From the NCBI GenBank assembly GCA_052055015.1, contig JBQJIT010000073.1: a DNA stretch of 35,541 bases. One strand, written 5' to 3'. Under the pieces are notes generated by a model. That model saw only the letters and a list, made by a program, of their open reading frames with translations. It was not told where the DNA came from and did not search any database. The position numbers and the translations under genes were made by a program. The DNA is from Malassezia furfur. Taxonomy: Eukaryota. This document shows positions 26,595 to 35,354 of the stretch, in pieces. How positions within the stretch are numbered: position 1 is the first letter of the stretch; every line of letters begins with the position of its first letter.

Positions 26595-26660
26595 TTTGCC
26601 GCGGCGTCAACGATGGTCGCCAGCGGTACGCGCACGGTCGTTGGACTCCACCTCCACTCT

Positions 26661-28745
26661 ATGTCCAGCAGCGGCGTGCCGCGGCGGGGCCGCTGGGCAG
26701 CGACGCGCCGTCGTGCATCGCAGTCCAAGTCGGCAGCCCCCACGTCCAAACTGCACCAGAGTGTCCTCTCAAACGATGCGCTCGAGACGCGCATCCAGAA
26801 CGAGATGTCGCCGTTCCCACCGACGTTTACCGAGAACGTGTCACGACGCGACGTGCCTCGCCCTGTGGAGGAGGGCCTGCCGAGCCTGCGCGACGTGGCC
26901 CTGCGCATTGCAGGGCAGCATTTCTCGACGCATATTTTGCCGACACCCGAGGTGTTTGAGCGCTTGCAGGGAACCTTGCGAAGCGCGCCGAAGACGACGC
27001 GCAAGCGGCGGAAAATGGACGACGATTATACCCCCGAAGACGACGAGGAGCAAGAGCGGCCAGACGCGCGCCCACCGAGCGTCACGATGACGTACACACA
27101 GGCACTCTATTGGAGCGAGACTAACCGCGATCTGCTCAAGCATCTTCCGCCTGTCCAGGTCGATGCTCTCTTCGATGCCATCTGCCTGTACTCACCCTGG
27201 TCGCTGACAAAGGAGGTGTTCTCGACCTATTTCCTCCCGCACGTCGCCCCAGAAAAGACACGGCTCGGAGGCGTGCAGGGCGAGGTACCGCCACTGCCTC
27301 TGGATGCGCGTGTGCGCACGCGCATTTTTTTCCCTGCCTCGCTGCCGCTGTTTTCGCAAGACCACAAAACGGCCTCACTGCTGCTTTCCGTGCTAGCAGG
27401 CGCGTTGGCCCTGTCGCCCAGTGCCGCGCGCCTGACGTCAGTCATCCGCGACCTTGATCTGCATGGACTCACGCGGCTCCAAAATGCATCGCTGGTGCGC
27501 TTGCTCCGTGCGCCGCCAAGCGCACCCAACGCGCAGCCCACGCCGTGGCACCTCCGGCATGTGGCCCTGCCCGGCTGCACGGCGATCGGCGACGCGGCCA
27601 TCACGGCACTTGTACGTGCCACGGGCGCAACGCTCGAGGAGCTCGACCTGGCCATGACGTCGGTGAGCACGTCGTCCGTACGCGAGATCGGCGCTGCCTG
27701 CCCTCACCTACGCTCATTGCGCGTCGCCTGGTGCGAGAATTTCGCCGAGGATACTTTTTCCGAGGCGGTGAGTGTCGCGGTGGCCCAATGCGCCAATGCC
27801 AAACCGCCGCGCATTCCGTTCCAGCAACTCGTCACGGTCGATGTGTCGCACACCTCGGTCGGCGACTTGGCAATAGGCGGCCTGCTCCGACTGTGTGGGT
27901 CACAGCTGCGCTCGCTCGATGTGGGGTACACCAACGTCGGGGGTGGGGGCAGCCTGGACATGCTGCGCCTCGGGCTCGGCCTGCCCAACACAAGCGCTGC
28001 GCATCCGTCGCCGCTCGGACACCTCGGCCTGGGCGGACTATGTGTGCACAGTGCGTCGCTGCTCGACCTCGTCGAGCACCTTCTTTCCGAGCAAGGCTCG
28101 CTTACATCGCTAGACCTGGACGACCTCGTGGAATACGCGCGGCGGCACCAGTCCAACTTGCAAGGCCGCACCGGCGTGTCGGGCGCGACGCTCCATCGAC
28201 TCGCCGAGGCCATCGCAAACGCCGTACGCCGGCGGCAGGAACCTTTTACTCGGTTCTTGGCACGCGGTGACAAACGTCGTGCATCCGTTCCTGGGCACTG
28301 GGCTGTACCAGGCGCGGCGCGCAGTGCCACAACGCTTGGCGCCGCTACACTCGGCGCGACCGTCTTTCGCCTCCTGACCACTTGCCGCGTACGTACTGGG
28401 CTACTGACGCAGTTCCTTGCACTCAATGGGCTACAGCTCGATGCCTACGATCTTGATGAGCAGAGTGGCGCGCCCTCGACGGTGCATACGCTGCACCTGG
28501 GCGGCACGGGTCTGCGCGACGACGCGCTCGACGCGCTCGTCCCTTGGACCGGTGCGCTCGAATCGCTCTATTTGGATGATACCCTTGTAACGTGTACGTT
28601 GCTGTCTGCTGACCCAGCGTCGGCTCTAGACCGTCTTGTACACCACAATCCGTACCTGGTGCTCATCAGTCTGTCTCAGTGCCGCGGCATCCCCGTGCGC
28701 GAGCGGCGGAGCTATTTCCAGGCCTGTAGTGAACGTGCTGAATAA
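26661..28745 (+). CDS. RNI-like leucine-rich-repeat protein
   Basis: Repeated LxxLxLxx units (LRHVALPGC, LEELDLAMT, LRSLRVAWC, LRSLDVGYT) and an N-terminal LPSLRDVALR motif. Probable in-frame introns 28389-28412 and 28594-28617. Confidence 0.8.
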   Translation: MSSSGVPRRGRWAATRRRASQSKSAAPTSKLHQSVLSNDALETRIQNEMSPFPPTFTENVSRRDVPRPVEEGLPSLRDVALRIAGQHFSTHILPTPEVFERLQGTLRSAPKTTRKRRKMDDDYTPEDDEEQERPDARPPSVTMTYTQALYWSETNRDLLKHLPPVQVDALFDAICLYSPWSLTKEVFSTYFLPHVAPEKTRLGGVQGEVPPLPLDARVRTRIFFPASLPLFSQDHKTASLLLSVLAGALALSPSAARLTSVIRDLDLHGLTRLQNASLVRLLRAPPSAPNAQPTPWHLRHVALPGCTAIGDAAITALVRATGATLEELDLAMTSVSTSSVREIGAACPHLRSLRVAWCENFAEDTFSEAVSVAVAQCANAKPPRIPFQQLVTVDVSHTSVGDLAIGGLLRLCGSQLRSLDVGYTNVGGGGSLDMLRLGLGLPNTSAAHPSPLGHLGLGGLCVHSASLLDLVEHLLSEQGSLTSLDLDDLVEYARRHQSNLQGRTGVSGATLHRLAEAIANAVRRRQEPFTRFLARGDKRRASVPGHWAVPGAARSATTLGAATLGATVFRLLTTCRVRTGLLTQFLALNGLQLDAYDLDEQSGAPSTVHTLHLGGTGLRDDALDALVPWTGALESLYLDDTLVTCTLLSADPASALDRLVHHNPYLVLISLSQCRGIPVRERRSYFQACSERAE

Positions 28746-28779
28746 TGCGAATCCGCCTTTTTTTTGGCTCTCGACCGCG

Positions 28780-31700
28780 ATGCGTGCCGCGGGGGAGGTC
28801 GAGTACGAGTACCTCTCGTGCGCGGTGAATCGCACGACGCACGTCGCTGACTGGCTCACCATCTACGGTGATGAGCAACGTGTCGATGTTTACGTGTTTG
28901 GCGTGCACAAAGGCTTTGCGGCCGTCACTGCGCCCCAGGACCTGAACTCGTGTGCCGGGCACCGCGAGGGGTGGGGTGCGCCAGCCGACGTCTACGTGCT
29001 CAAGGCGGCACCCGCTCACGATACCCACACTGCACTTATTGTCGGACACTATAACGGTGCGCTTCATGTGTTCCAGCCAAGCCTCCGCAACGGTACGGTG
29101 GCCTGGGCGCACGATGTCCAGCTGCCCCAAGCGCACGCCTCCTCCGTCACGGCGCTCGGCGTACTGCGCGACCCAGCGTCCGTGGCGCGCGGCGCCGATC
29201 TTTTTGTGTCCGGGAGCACCGACGGCACGCTCAAGGTCTGGCACCTCGCCCGAGGGCCATGCCTGCAGGCGACGCTCGCGCAGGACATTCCGCTCGGCGG
29301 CAAGTATCCGCTGGACATTGCCCTCGCGCACCTGCCCGGTGCAGATGCGGAGCCCATCACGATCATGGCCGTCGCACTGACGGACAAAAAGGTGCACGTG
29401 TACGTGCGAGAAGCGGGCTCCTTCACGCTGCGGCTCGCGCTCGAAGGCCACGAGGATTGGGTACGTGCGCTCGACTTTGCCGTTGCGCCGCGCGGGCAGG
29501 TTGGCGTGCTGGACGTGCACTTGGCGTCTGCGTCACAGGACAACAACCTCCGCCTTTGGCGCATCCAGGCGGCGTCGGCAGCCGACGTGCCCGACCCCGA
29601 CACCACGGACGCATTCGAGGCCATGGCACGCGAACTGGTGCCAAGCACGGATCAGGCAATCAACACCAAGAAGAACTGGCTCACGTTCCACGACGGCCAG
29701 CGCTGGGCAATCTCGCTCGATGCGCTGCTCGTTGGCCACGACGCATGGGTCACGGGCGCGCGTTGGCTGCCGGCCCCACACGCCGACCGCCAGCAGGCCG
29801 CCCTGCTCTCGAGCTCGATGGACAATAGCATGATTGTCTGGTCGCCGCGGGAGCCGGGCACGTCGACGTATCCCCGCCTTGCCGACGACGCCGCGTCGCA
29901 GGCGCTGTGGCTGCCCGTCGCTCGTCTCGGCGACGTCGGCACGCTGAGCGGCGGCTTCCTCAGCGCGCTTTGGCACCCGGCCGGTAACGCAATTCTCACG
30001 CACGACCGCCACGGGGCGACGCATCTGTGGGCACAGCATGCAGCCACCGGGCGCTATACGCCGTGTGCGGTCGTGTCCGGCCACGCGGGAGCCGCGCGCG
30101 GCGTCGCGTGGGAACCGTACGGCGACTACTTCCTTTCCACTGGGTACGTGCACTACTAACGCAGCATCGACCGAACGACGCGTCTGCATGGTACCTACAG
30201 TACGCGCGGCGACGACGAGGACGCCGTGCCGCCCCGCTCGTGGCACGAGATGGCACGGCCACAGACGCACGGCTACGACCTGCAGGCGGTGGCATGGCTC
30301 GACCGCGCCACGTTTGTCAGCGCTGCAGACGAAAAGGTGATGCGCGTGTTTGGTGCGCCGCGCACCTTTGTCGAGAGCGCGCGCGCCCTGCACATGGTGC
30401 AGGCGCATGTGCACACGACGCAGGTCGTTGTGCACGACGCCATTGCACCGGATGCTTGGAAACACCCCATGCGACTGGACGGCGCGATTGAGGCAGCGCT
30501 GGCGGACGAACCCGCAGCGCTTGCTATTCTCGTGTTTAGCGACTCGCTCGCGGGCGAGACACCGGCCGTGCCGCTCCACGCGGTCGAGTACTTCCTGCAG
30601 CAGGTGTACACCAAGGCGTGGGGCATTGCGGCGCGCCGTGACCGTCTGCAGACGGACATTACCGTGTACCTGATTCCGCGTGCACTGACCAGTGCTGCAG
30701 GGCACACGGCGGCCCAACAGTGGTCCGACACGTACGGTCGCGCGGTCGCAGGCGTGTGGGCGGTCGGCGATGCAGCGCAAGTCGACTGGCTCGCAGCAGT
30801 GATGCGCGTGGTGCCTACGCCGGTGCCGGCGAGCGACTCGACGCCAGGTGAGGCCCACGGCGCATCGTTCCCCCGTGCCGCGACCGTGGCGCTGGGCGGG
30901 ACGTTTGACCACCTGCACATTGGGCACAAGCTGCTGCTTAGCATCGCCGCGCTGTGCACGACACAGCGCTTAATTGTCGGCGTGACGAGCACCGAACTGC
31001 TCGCAAAAAAGAAGCACCGGGCCTATGTCGAACCCATTGCCGTGCGTCTCGCGGCCGTGCGCCATTTCCTGCGCGCGTTCCGCCAGGCATTTGGCGCACT
31101 GGAGCTGGACGTGGTGCCGATCAGCGACGTGTGTGGCCCCGCAGCGACCGACCCATCGCTGGACCTGTTGGTGGTTACCGAGGAAACGGCCAAAGGTGCA
31201 GATACCATTGCCGAGGAGCGACGCAAAAATGAGGTGAAGGCCGTCGACGTGCACGTTGTGTCGCTGGTGGACGCGGCGGACCATTCGGACAAAGTGGGAA
31301 GCACAGCGATCCGTGGCTGGCTCGAGGCAAGGCAGATCCCGCCAGGACACGAAACGCCACTGGACGTCGACCTCGCTGCGGCGCTCGCTGCCGCGCCCGC
31401 GTCGGTCGACGTGCCGGCGCTCGGCCTGTCGAACCGCGCGGCGGATGCCGTTGAGGCGGACGCGGCGCCGGCATCGACGCCTGTGCTGACCACGCCGCCG
31501 AACCCTGAGCAGTTGCAAGCTGCGACGCTCTGGCTTGAGCTCGAGAAGCTGTACGGCCACGGCTACGAGCTTCTGAGTGTCGACGCTGACCCACGCACGC
31601 GGCTCATTGCGAGCACCTGCAAGGCGACGACGCCGGCGCATGCGGTGGTGCGCCTCTTTGACGGGCACGATCGGTACAAGCCGCTCGCAGAGGTCCTCGA

Positions 31701-32244
31701 GGGGCACACGCTATCGGTGACACGCGTGCGCTTCTCACCGTCGGGCGAGTACCTGCTGACGAGCAGTCGTGACCGCTCGTGGCGCCTGTTCCGCCGCACC
31801 GGCATGCGGTACGAGCCGTACGCCGGCGAGCGTGCACATGCACGCATTGTGTGGGACTGTGCGTGGAGTGTGGATGGGCGCATGTTTGCGACAGCATCGC
31901 GCGACAAGACGGTCAAGGTCTGGCAACTCGACGCAGCATCGGCGAAGCGGTACGTCCCTCTTGCCACGATCGAGCTGGACGACGCCGCGACGGCTGTGGC
32001 GATGGGCGACGGCGACGCGATCGCGATCGGTCTCGAACGTGGTGAGGTGCGCATCTACGAGCCAGATGCGGCGCACACGCGCTGGTCGTGCGCCGCTAGT
32101 CTGCCCTGGCACCACACGGGGACCGTGCACCAAGTGGCCTTCCGGTCGCGGGGTGCGTGGCAGGACACCTACAACCAAGTACCCTACATGCTGCTCTCTG
32201 CGGGCGACGATGGGTGTGTTCGTGTAATTTCGTGGCGTAGCTAG
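28780..32244 (+). CDS. ELP2: Elongator subunit Elp2 (double WD40 propeller) with an inserted PPAT domain
   Basis: [104 protein letters not shown] and [10 protein letters not shown] are Elp2 hallmarks. Intron 30144-30164 (21 nt). Confidence 0.93.
30394..31330 (+). other. Phosphopantetheine adenylyltransferase (Cab4/CoaD-like, cytidylyltransferase fold) nested in frame within ELP2
   Basis: [18 protein letters not shown] (HxGH at 30916-30927), [31 protein letters not shown] and KVGSTAIR, with no stop on either side. Confidence 0.88.
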
Positions 32245-32747: not shown

Positions 32748-35354
32748 ATGGCGAGCGAACGCACGGCGGCGCCGGGCGCGTCGCTGGACGAGATGCGCGA
32801 GCGCTCGCGTCAGGAGTACTTGGCGAAGCGTGCACAGCAGCAGGTCGAGCTGCTTCGCCGGGAGATCCAGGACGAAGAGACCTTCTTCCGGGGCGTGCAG
32901 CTCACGAAGAAGGAGCAGCGCGAGTTGGAGCACAAGCGTGAGTTGCTGCGCCTCGCCGAGGAACACGCGGCGCTTGATGCACCAACCGAGACCTACGTGC
33001 TTCCTGAGGACTACCTCACCGAGCAGGGGCGTGTCGACCGCAAGCGGAAGCAGGCGGCGCTGCACGACCGACGCTGTATGTTGCACACCACTCACCCAGA
33101 CGACGACCGCGGCCACCGCAAACGCGCACCGCCGGAAACCGACGCATTTGAGCGCGAGCAGATTGAGCGCTCGATGCTGCTGCAGGAGGCCGCACCGCGC
33201 GCCGAGGACGACGCGTTCGACTTTGTCATTGACGAGTCGCAGACCATCCAGTTTATCCTGGACAAGCAAAAGCACGGCGCCGTCGAGCCGCAGCGCTCGG
33301 CCAAGGACGTGGAGCTGGAGCGCCGACTGCACGAGGCCGAGGAGCGTGCGTCGTCGATCGAGGCGACGCGCAAGTCGCTGCCAGTGTATGCGCTTCGCGA
33401 AGAGTTTCTTGCGGCACTCCAGGAGCACCAGATTCTGATCGTCGTGGGCGAGACGGGCTCGGGCAAGACGACGCAGCTGCCGCAGTTTCTGCACGAGGCG
33501 GGCTATACGCGCGACAACCAAATCGTCGCGTGCACACAGCCGCGCCGCGTCGCGGCGATGAGCGTTGCTGCGCGCGTCGCCGAAGAGATGGGCGTACGTT
33601 TGGGGCGCGAGTGTGGCTATAGCATCCGCTTTGAGGACTGCACATCGGACGACACCGTGGTCAAGTACATGACTGACGGGATGCTCCTGCGCGAGTTCCT
33701 CACCAACCCCGACCTGGGCAACTACTCGGTGATCATGATCGACGAGGCGCACGAGCGCACGCTCAACACCGACATTCTGTTTGGCCTGATCAAGGACATT
33801 GCGCGCTTCCGCCCCGACCTCAAGGTGCTAATCTCCTCTGCGACGCTCGACGCGGAAAAGTTTAGCATGTTCTTTGATGACGCGCCCATCTTCTTTGTCC
33901 CCGGGCGCCGCTTTCCGGTGGACATCCACTATACCCCCCAGCCCGAGGCAAACTATCTGCATGCGGCCATCACCACCGTCTTCCAGATCCATACGACGCA
34001 GCCGCGTGGCGACATCCTCGTCTTCCTTACCGGGCAGGACGAGATCGACGTCGCGATGGAGAACCTCGAGCAGACGACCCGCGCACTCGGCGGCAAGATT
34101 GCCGAGTTGATCGTGTGCCCGATTTATGCGAACCTGCCGAGCGACATGCAAGCGCGTGTGTTTGAGCCGACGCCACCGGGCGCACGCAAGGTGGTGCTGG
34201 CCACCAACATTGCGGAAACGTCCATCACGATCGATGGCATCGCGTTTGTAATCGACCCGGGCTTTGTCAAGCAAAACTCGTACAATCCGCGCACGGGCAT
34301 GTCGGCGCTGAGTGTGGTGCCGTGCTCGCGCGCCTCGGTGAACCAGCGTGCGGGGCGTGCGGGACGTGTGGGGCCGGGCAAGTGTTTCCGCCTGTTTACC
34401 AAGTGGGCGTACAGCAATGAGCTCGAGGAGAACACGGTGCCCGAGATCCAGCGCACGAACCTCGCCAACGTCGTGCTCCTGCTCAAGTCGGTGGGCATCC
34501 ACGACTTGCTCAACTTTGACTTCCTCGACCCGCCGCCGACCGACACGCTCATCCGCTCGCTCGAGCTGCTCTATGCGCTCGGCGCACTGAACGACCGCGG
34601 CGAGCTCACCAAGCTTGGGCGGCGCATGGCCGAGTTCCCGGTGGACCCGATGATGAGCAAGGCCATTCTGGCGAGCGAAGAGTATCGCTGCACCGAAGAG
34701 GTGCTGTCGATTGTCTCGATGCTCGCCGAGAGTGGCAGCCTCTTTTTCCGCCCCAAGGACAAGAAGCTCCACGCGGACCGTGCGCGGCAGACCTTTTTCC
34801 GGCCGGGCGGCGACCACTTTACGCTGCTGGCCATCTGGGAACAGTGGGTCGAGAGCGGGTACAGCAGCGCGTTCTGCCTCGAAAACTTTTTGCAGCCCAA
34901 GACGCTCGGGCGCGTGCGCGACATCCGCGACCAGCTGCTGCATCTGTGTGAGCGCGTGGAGCTCGTGCCCGAGTCGAACCCCAACAGTGCCGACCTCACG
35001 GGGATCCAAAAGGCGATCGTGTCGGGCTACTTTATGAACACGGCGCGTCTGCAAAAGGGTGGCGAGACGTACCGCGCGATCAAGCAGAACAGCAGCGTGT
35101 ACGTGCACCCATCATCGTGCCTGTACAAGCACGTCCCGCAGCCGCGCTTCCTGTGCTACTACGAGCTGGTGGAGACCTCGAAAAACTTTATGCGCCAGGT
35201 CATGGAGATCCAGTCCGAATGGCTCATCGAGGTCGCGCGGCACTACTTCTCGCGCGACGACGTGCAGGACAACACCAAGCTGCAGCGCATGCAGCGGGGT
35301 TCGGGCGCCGCAGCGTCTGCGGGCGGCGCGCGGCGCGGCGAGGCGTATGCATAG
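32748..35354 (+). CDS. PRP2: Spliceosomal DEAH helicase Prp2/Cdc28/DHX16
   Basis: [50 protein letters not shown] and [13 protein letters not shown]. Probable in-frame intron 33076-33099. Confidence 0.9.

Follow-up and report, generated by a model that had tools for sequence, protein, structure and literature searches.

Canonical Elp2 is described as a scaffold subunit of Elongator without enzymatic activity (PMC8113450), Elp3 of the same complex consumes acetyl-coenzyme A (acetyl-CoA; PMC6620098), and yeast Cab4, a phosphopantetheine adenylyltransferase (PPAT), belongs to a Cab3-scaffolded CoA-synthesising complex and is encoded by one of the essential genes CAB1-CAB5 (PMC8494682). The solved structures of Elp2 from yeast (4XFV, 5M2N) and human (8PTX chain B) are double WD40 propellers. 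PPATs are found as standalone proteins in fungi such as Tulasnella and Tilletia, as a single domain of ~150 residues in archaea (3DO8, from Archaeoglobus fulgidus), and in COASY, where PPAT and dephospho-CoA kinase, two consecutive enzymes of the pathway, are joined end to end. Here we describe a plus-strand gene of Malassezia furfur in which a complete PPAT of the Cab4 type is embedded within Elp2. The gene lies in a stretch of 35,541 nucleotides (hereafter the window), contig JBQJIT010000073.1 of assembly GCA_052055015.1.

The Elp2-PPAT fusion is real and is a trait of the subphylum Ustilaginomycotina. It probably represents an anciently fixed bifunctional gene encoding one polypeptide, the propeller halves of which would serve Elongator while the loop-borne module would make dephospho-CoA. 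In the mechanism that we propose, a complete Cab4-type PPAT, comprising an N-terminal alpha/beta domain and a catalytic nucleotidyltransferase domain, would have entered Elp2 in frame, at a loop on the surface of its second WD40 propeller; this single event would date from the base of Ustilaginomycotina or close to it, and would most likely have been reversed later in Tilletia. The product would be translated as a single chain, its two Elp2 halves folding round the insert into a normal double propeller that would be incorporated into Elongator, and the PPAT module would hang from the loop and act as the ordinary PPAT of the cell, converting 4'-phosphopantetheine and ATP to dephospho-CoA. The proposal starts from what was observed, namely how the gene is built and how widely this is conserved, the purifying selection on it, its intact nucleotide-binding motifs and the fold of the PPAT; from these we infer activity, incorporation into Elongator and the status of sole PPAT.

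A PPAT module inside the second propeller of Elp2

Exon 2 of the gene was compared with solved Elp2 structures by phmmer (4xfv_A, E 5.9e-59; 5m2n_A, E 7.3e-59; 8ptx_B, E 1.9e-49), and orthology was found on both sides of the insert. WD40 repeats were assigned by Pfam in both exons and CTP_transf_like (PF01467) in exon 2. Residues 2-67 of the translation of window:30166-32241 aligned to residues 406-470 of yeast Elp2 (5M2N) and residues 410-632 to residues 489-733, with 342 residues occupying the place of ~19 in the yeast protein. In MAFFT alignments the same interval spanned 18-23 residues in the five Elp2 proteins that have no insert (Tilletia, Artomyces, Meredithblackwellia, Calocera and Syncephalis) and 342-389 residues in seven fused proteins, the insertion site being identical in all seven; the net excess in the window is therefore ~320 codons. 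The Elp2 motifs RPQxHGYD, DEKVxRVF and VPxLGLSN(R/K)A were conserved. An AlphaFold2 model of exon 2 (predicted local distance difference test [pLDDT] 86.6, predicted template modelling score [pTM] 0.88) had Elp2 chains as its best Foldseek matches (8ptx_B, E 5.7e-20; 8asv_B; 4xfv), in agreement with a WD40 propeller; the propeller modelling covered exon 2, and the WD40 assignment of exon 1 rests on the Pfam matches.

The nucleotide-binding motifs H-x-G-H and S-T-x-x-R define the superfamily to which PPAT belongs, and both were present in the insert, as in PPATs of the archaeal/eukaryotic type (EC 2.7.7.3). Exon 2 scored 37.4 bits against PF01467 (gathering cut-off 21), and the insert alone scored 115.6 bits against NCBIfam NF001985 (pantetheine-phosphate adenylyltransferase; cut-off 104) over profile positions 5-142 of 157. 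The archaeal PPAT 3DO8 was matched in sequence with an E of 8.3e-10, its nucleotide-binding motifs aligning to those of the insert. By BLASTP, insert residues 34-319 corresponded to residues 25-320 of the 344-residue standalone PPAT of Tulasnella (P0037; 32% identity, E 2e-42), so that homology of the fungal Cab4 type extended across both the catalytic core and the region N-terminal to it; this comparison was made with basidiomycete PPATs, and a Lachancea PPAT (P0181) matched the core only. Insert residues 50-323 likewise corresponded to residues 52-355 of 358 in a standalone Tilletia PPAT (P0041). Because the match to the Tulasnella protein is nearly end to end, the embedded element is a whole PPAT protein and extends beyond the catalytic core. 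No match to CoaE (PF01121, dephospho-CoA kinase), the second enzyme of COASY, was obtained in either exon at a Pfam E <= 0.01; CoaE was readily detected in the PPAT + CoaE proteins P0089, P0146 and P0109 among the homologues.

The insert was also modelled alone with AlphaFold2 (pLDDT 88.9, pTM 0.89). Its catalytic domain superposed on 3do8_B with a Z of 15.4 and a root mean square deviation (rmsd) of 2.4 A over 123/123 residues, and Foldseek returned the same chain with an E of 1.9e-7 and a TM score of 0.81 normalised to the target, which identifies the nucleotidyltransferase alpha/beta fold. The N-terminal domain was predicted with pLDDT >84 over most of its length; its fold matches were borderline (2rbg_B, Z 9.2; 6vw9_A, Z 9.1; 1q77_B, Z 8.4; universal-stress-protein-like), and a resemblance of the modelled domain to universal stress proteins is tentative. 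ESM Atlas searches with the N-terminal region gave best scores of 0.76-0.81, taken as leads only. An N-terminal extension is common to basidiomycete standalone PPATs and the insert, and in the insert model it is a confidently folded alpha/beta domain. Foldseek matches of the whole insert to the tandem two-domain structures 3elb and 3cis had an rmsd of 16-20 A and were set aside, no shared domain arrangement being read from them.

Conservation was assessed across 31 fused proteins. G244, G245, T246, F247, D248, H249, H251, G253, H254 and K255 of the first motif region were invariant in 31/31; of the second, K376, S379, I382 and R383 were invariant and G378 and T380 nearly so. Further invariant residues were G272, T274, K282, R294, G324-P325, T338, E340-T341, G344 and R352. 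The mean share of the majority residue was 0.63 in the PPAT core and 0.63-0.67 in the Elp2 propeller. Between the Malassezia-like metagenome contigs L001 and L003 (94.7% identical), the ratio of nonsynonymous to synonymous substitution rates (dN/dS) was 0.18 in the insert, 0.10 in the N part of Elp2 and 0.14 in the C part. Intact motifs, purifying selection and the predicted PPAT fold suggest that the module is functional, presumably as an active enzyme.

The locus can be set beside four described systems. Canonical Elp2 has the same double propeller and conserved motifs, with an 18-23-residue loop where the window encodes an enzyme module. The standalone fungal PPATs (Tulasnella P0037, Tilletia P0041) share the two-domain layout, the motifs and end-to-end alignment, whereas the module lacks its own start and stop and lies within the propeller of another protein. 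Archaeal PPAT (3DO8, NF001985) has the same catalytic fold and belongs to the same profile family, but the module adds the N-terminal alpha/beta domain and sits inside Elp2. COASY is similar in that a PPAT domain is fused to another protein; here, in contrast, the fusion is an internal insertion, CoaE is absent and the PPAT is joined to a scaffold for tRNA modification, which does not belong to its pathway.

A sequence-only reading of the window had proposed Elp2 with a complete PPAT inside it, on the strength of one open frame (30165-32244) and of Elp2 and PPAT motifs. Frame and motifs were all present in the sequence and the list of open reading frames (ORFs), and the proposal is upheld by the WD40 and PF01467 assignments, the NF001985 match above cut-off and the Elp2 alignment on both sides. 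The same reading had put the excess at ~320 codons and stated that a short loop usually connects the Elp2 flanks, both of which agree with the interval lengths given above; the N-terminal region that it likened to fungal Cab4 aligned to the N-terminal part of the Tulasnella PPAT. It had looked to profile searches and structure prediction, and these returned the expected WD40 and CTP_transf_like domains, archaeal PPAT as the match of the insert model and Elp2 chains as the matches of the exon 2 model.

Distribution in Ustilaginomycotina and the case of Tilletia

All 22 longer homologues of the insert were WD40 proteins, 21 of the 22 carrying PF01467 in the precomputed list, and those with names were Elongator subunit Elp2 from five Malassezia species and Parajaminaea. 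Among the best 45 of 167 proteins in a BLASTP search, 34 had the insert followed by the C part of Elp2; 27 of these had Elp2-N, Elp2-mid, insert and Elp2-C in that order, and the other seven were truncated fragments. The fused form was also found in Tilletiaria anomala, Meira miltonrushii, Violaceomyces palustris, Pseudozyma flocculosa, Kalmanozyma brasiliensis and Ceraceosorus bombacis, and a search with the C-terminal flank of Elp2 added fused proteins of Malassezia pachydermatis, M. caprae and M. nana. The named species with the fused form thus number 15 (eight of Malassezia and one each of Parajaminaea, Tilletiaria, Meira, Violaceomyces, Pseudozyma, Kalmanozyma and Ceraceosorus), and by NCBI taxonomy they span seven orders in three classes (Malasseziomycetes, Ustilaginomycetes and Exobasidiomycetes). 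In the C-flank search, named Elp2 proteins of other basidiomycetes and of Syncephalis had 750-940 residues and no PF01467. The sequence-only reading had treated the fusion as a curiosity of one organism, which it is not, and had pointed to a survey of Elp2 orthologues; that survey separates the 15 fused species from Tilletia and the other basidiomycetes sampled, whose Elp2 is without PF01467.

Three Malassezia-like metagenome contigs (L001-L003) each contained one uninterrupted ORF of 1105-1129 codons spanning both junctions, together with the neighbours found in the window, namely an ORF upstream, an RBX1-like gene in convergent orientation and a DEAH helicase. A fourth contig (L004) begins inside the Elp2-PPAT gene and has the two downstream neighbours. 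In a carefully built 34-row PPAT tree the insert of the window fell inside the Malassezia clade with a support of 100/100. Two Elp2-PPAT fusions, P0168 and P0044, are filed under the fern Adiantum nelumboides; P0168 shares a 90%-identity cluster with the protein of Meira miltonrushii, which suggests that the plant assembly contains fungal DNA. A further metagenome ORF of 875 codons (L005:15-2639) has a PPAT-like stretch without Elp2 flanks and a partial PF01467 match only.

Elp2 of Tilletia horrida (P0293, 893 aa) is without PF01467 and has a 23-residue loop at the insertion site, and the PPATs of Tilletia species are standalone proteins of 344-364 residues. Whichever the direction of change, the pattern is complementary: the sole lineage without the insert has a free PPAT. 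Database names need care at this point, as two PPAT-only proteins of T. horrida (P0029 and P0041, 358-364 residues) are labelled 'Elongator subunit elp2', a label apparently transferred from fused relatives. In the 34-row tree all Ustilaginomycotina PPATs formed one clade (98/97) that included those of Tilletia, with Malassezia sister to the rest (95/90) and Tilletia sister to the remaining fused forms (87/86). A 182-row FastTree of PPAT cores placed Malassezia apart from other Ustilaginomycotina; the 34-row tree is the more careful of the two and was therefore trusted above it for the placement of Malassezia. NCBI taxonomy lists Tilletiales in Exobasidiomycetes beside four fused orders, and a phylogenomic hypothesis with monophyletic Exobasidiomycetes has been cited (PMC7451774). 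Since Tilletiales stand among fused orders in the taxonomy and in the trees above, a single insertion at or near the base of Ustilaginomycotina, later split in Tilletia, appears the most likely course.

Gene model and neighbouring genes

The ORF list gave an open stop-to-stop frame of 694 codons at 30160-32244, in the same frame as 28630-30159; read from the ATG at 28780, the frame meets a TAA at 30157-30159 and resumes at 30160 in the same frame to the TAG. The 21 nucleotides of the proposed intron (Table 1), a multiple of three with textbook GTACGT, TACTAAC and CAG signals, held the only pair of 5' splice site and branch point found in a scan of the gene, and with these nucleotides removed the spacing of the protein matched 7/7 homologues inspected. 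The gene was therefore modelled with two exons and the in-frame TAA as intronic. The orthologous loci on L001-L003 have no intron at this position. Exon 1 was 60-61% identical to residues 6-453 of Elp2 of Malassezia yamatoensis and M. psittaci (BLASTP).

Table 1. Coordinates of the Elp2-PPAT gene and its parts in the window
Feature	Position	Strand	Description
Elp2-PPAT gene	28780-32244	+	Two exons, 28780-30143 and 30165-32241; stop TAG 32242-32244
Elp2 exon 1	28780-30143	+	ATG, first WD40 propeller and start of second; open ORF, WD40 Pfam matches
21-nt intron	30144-30164	+	GTACGT...TACTAAC...CAG; contains in-frame TAA
Elp2 segment before insert	30165-30366	+	Aligns to yeast Elp2 406-470 and human ELP2 409-476
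Inserted PPAT (Cab4-type) module	30367-31392	+	342 residues between conserved Elp2 anchors
N-terminal alpha/beta domain of PPAT module	30412-30825	+	Insert residues 16-153; aligns to N-terminal part of Tulasnella PPAT
Catalytic PPAT nucleotidyltransferase domain	30874-31356	+	Insert residues 170-330; PF01467, NF001985
H-x-G-H nucleotide-binding motif	30895-30927	+	11 residues
KVGSTAIR, second nucleotide-binding motif (S-T-x-x-R)	31291-31314	+	
Elp2 segment after insert	31393-32241	+	Loop, then remaining blades of second propeller; aligns to yeast Elp2 489-733
Stop codon TAG	32242-32244	+	

A convergent RBX1-like RING-H2 gene lies on the minus strand, its stop codon (32243-32241) overlapping the TAG of the Elp2-PPAT gene within the palindrome CTAG, and its C-terminal exon matched zf-rbx1 with an E of 1.9e-11. 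The upstream ORF (26616-28742, plus strand, 709 codons) was 46-48% identical to the ORFs at the same position on L001-L003 and had no Pfam family at E <= 1e-5. Downstream, a DEAH-box RNA helicase (32790-35351, plus strand; DEAD, Helicase_C, HA2 and OB_NTP_bind domains) was 72-78% identical to its counterparts on L001-L004.

Alternative explanations and biological meaning

It is highly improbable that the fusion is an artefact, whether of misassembly, of a nested gene in a large intron or of an insert that is always spliced out, because the same continuous ORF with conserved synteny occurs in three independent metagenome contigs, the fusion occurs in 15 named genomes, and the insert keeps the reading frame and evolves under purifying selection. 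GC content at third codon positions was 0.75-0.80 in every segment of the gene, uniform across insert and flanks, and the scan of the gene gave no splice signals at the insert borders; splicing-out of the insert was rejected, the intron at 30144, of only 21 nt, being the sole candidate of that scan. Another explanation is that the housekeeping role falls to a second PPAT encoded elsewhere in the genome, the embedded one being redundant, regulatory or a ligand-binding pseudo-enzyme. This would find room in the fraction of PPAT-like proteins sampled (see below), but it is made quite improbable by motifs invariant in 31/31 fused proteins, by a dN/dS of 0.18 and by the search for standalone copies. 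Among the 30 PPAT-like proteins named, Tilletia's were the only standalone PPATs of Ustilaginomycotina; in the 182-row tree no standalone protein fell inside the Malassezia clade, and only Tilletia's fell inside the clade of other Ustilaginomycotina; and none of the ten nearest previously unnamed standalone PPATs, when looked up, was from Ustilaginomycotina. A word-based neighbour search for standalone relatives gave 14 matches, none from Ustilaginomycotina, and was too insensitive to weigh; a tblastn search for a second PPAT within the window returned the insert itself only. The complementary pattern in Tilletia, together with the lack of any other standalone Ustilaginomycotina PPAT among the 30 named, suggests that the embedded copy is the housekeeping PPAT, and lends indirect support to the sequence-only conjecture that it may be the organism's only one. 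Several points count against the favoured reading. The HMMER search gave 3767 PPAT-like representatives at E <= 0.001, of which the best 150 were examined, and statements on standalone copies rest on the 30 proteins for which names were obtained. The N-terminal domain is the least conserved part of the PPAT module (mean majority share 0.40). On the polarity of the Tilletia state the trees do not agree. Constraining the 21 fused PPATs to a single clade cost 4.74 log-likelihood (lnL) units and was not rejected (p of the approximately unbiased test [p-AU] 0.075). In a rapidly built Elp2 tree from which the insert had been deleted, Tilletia fell outside every fused Elp2 (Shimodaira-Hasegawa-like approximate likelihood ratio test [SH-aLRT] 88), whereas grouping Tilletia with the remaining Exobasidiomycetes improved the likelihood slightly, by 1.06 lnL (p-AU 0.54).

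A rival reading is that of adaptive coupling, in which placing PPAT beside Elp3 would let CoA synthesis and the modification of wobble uridines control one another; the module might act as a sensor of CoA, dephospho-CoA or acetyl-CoA that gates Elp3, or might bring the remainder of the CoA-synthesising complex (the Cab3 scaffold and Cab5) to Elongator. The sequence-only reading had likewise suggested that the tether might provide CoA locally or couple the two metabolically. The position of the insert speaks for such coupling. By alignment, the R of DEKVMRVF (30343-30345) is equivalent to R462 of human ELP2, which has been reported to lie where Elp2 meets the SAM domain of Elp3 (PMC8113450), and the insert starts <=18 residues after it. 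The insert replaces yeast Elp2 residues 471-488 and therefore adjoins loop aa484-532, which is reported to become visible at the Elp1/Elp3 interface in the Elp123 map (PMC6620098). Residues 415-435 of the exon 2 model had pLDDT <50, which would fit a loop that becomes ordered only on assembly, and the interface-associated residues (the R462 equivalent and the VPxLGLSNRA loop) are conserved. With both elements adjoining it, the module would thus emerge near the catalytic subunit, the consumer of acetyl-CoA (PMC6620098). The membership of yeast Cab4 in a scaffolded complex (PMC8494682) and the retention of the fusion across three classes point the same way. Against this, the PPAT product dephospho-CoA is at least two enzymatic steps from acetyl-CoA in the pathway (PMC8494682), which makes channelling chemically indirect; Tilletia apparently gets by with Elp2 and PPAT encoded apart; and two housekeeping genes, once fused, can stay so for long without an adaptive reason. 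Adaptive coupling is on balance rather unlikely, and because of the distance from acetyl-CoA and the separate genes of Tilletia, the tether in the bifunctional protein is probably tolerated rather than required. There is a small chance that each Ustilaginomycotina Elongator carries two PPAT modules by the Elp2-Elp3 interface that couple CoA metabolism to wobble-uridine modification, through sensing of CoA-family nucleotides or docking of the Cab3 complex; if so, translation tuning would read out the CoA status of the cell directly.

Public databases already contain the fused proteins with their Pfam domains, and the fact is latent there. In a full-text literature search (Elp2 or Elongator with PPAT or Cab4; Malassezia, Ustilago and basidiomycete fusions), which drew partly on listings and the beginnings of abstracts and whose scope excluded subscription-only papers and supplements, no Elp2-PPAT fusion was described, in keeping with the sequence-only reading, which knew of no published account.

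Elp2, regarded as a non-enzymatic scaffold (PMC8113450), thus carries a complete enzyme of an essential pathway across Ustilaginomycotina, the subphylum to which crop smuts belong as well as Malassezia, with its commensals and pathogens of human skin. For evolutionary study the locus offers a clean, datable case in which an entire gene entered a loop of a beta-propeller, and Tilletia provides a natural control in which the two are split. As the module adjoins the part of Elp2 that contacts Elp3, it also offers a ready-made test of a functional link between CoA metabolism and Elp3. Deletion of ELP2 in the fused fungi would also remove what is probably their only PPAT, and elp2 knock-out phenotypes there would therefore not be readable as Elongator phenotypes.

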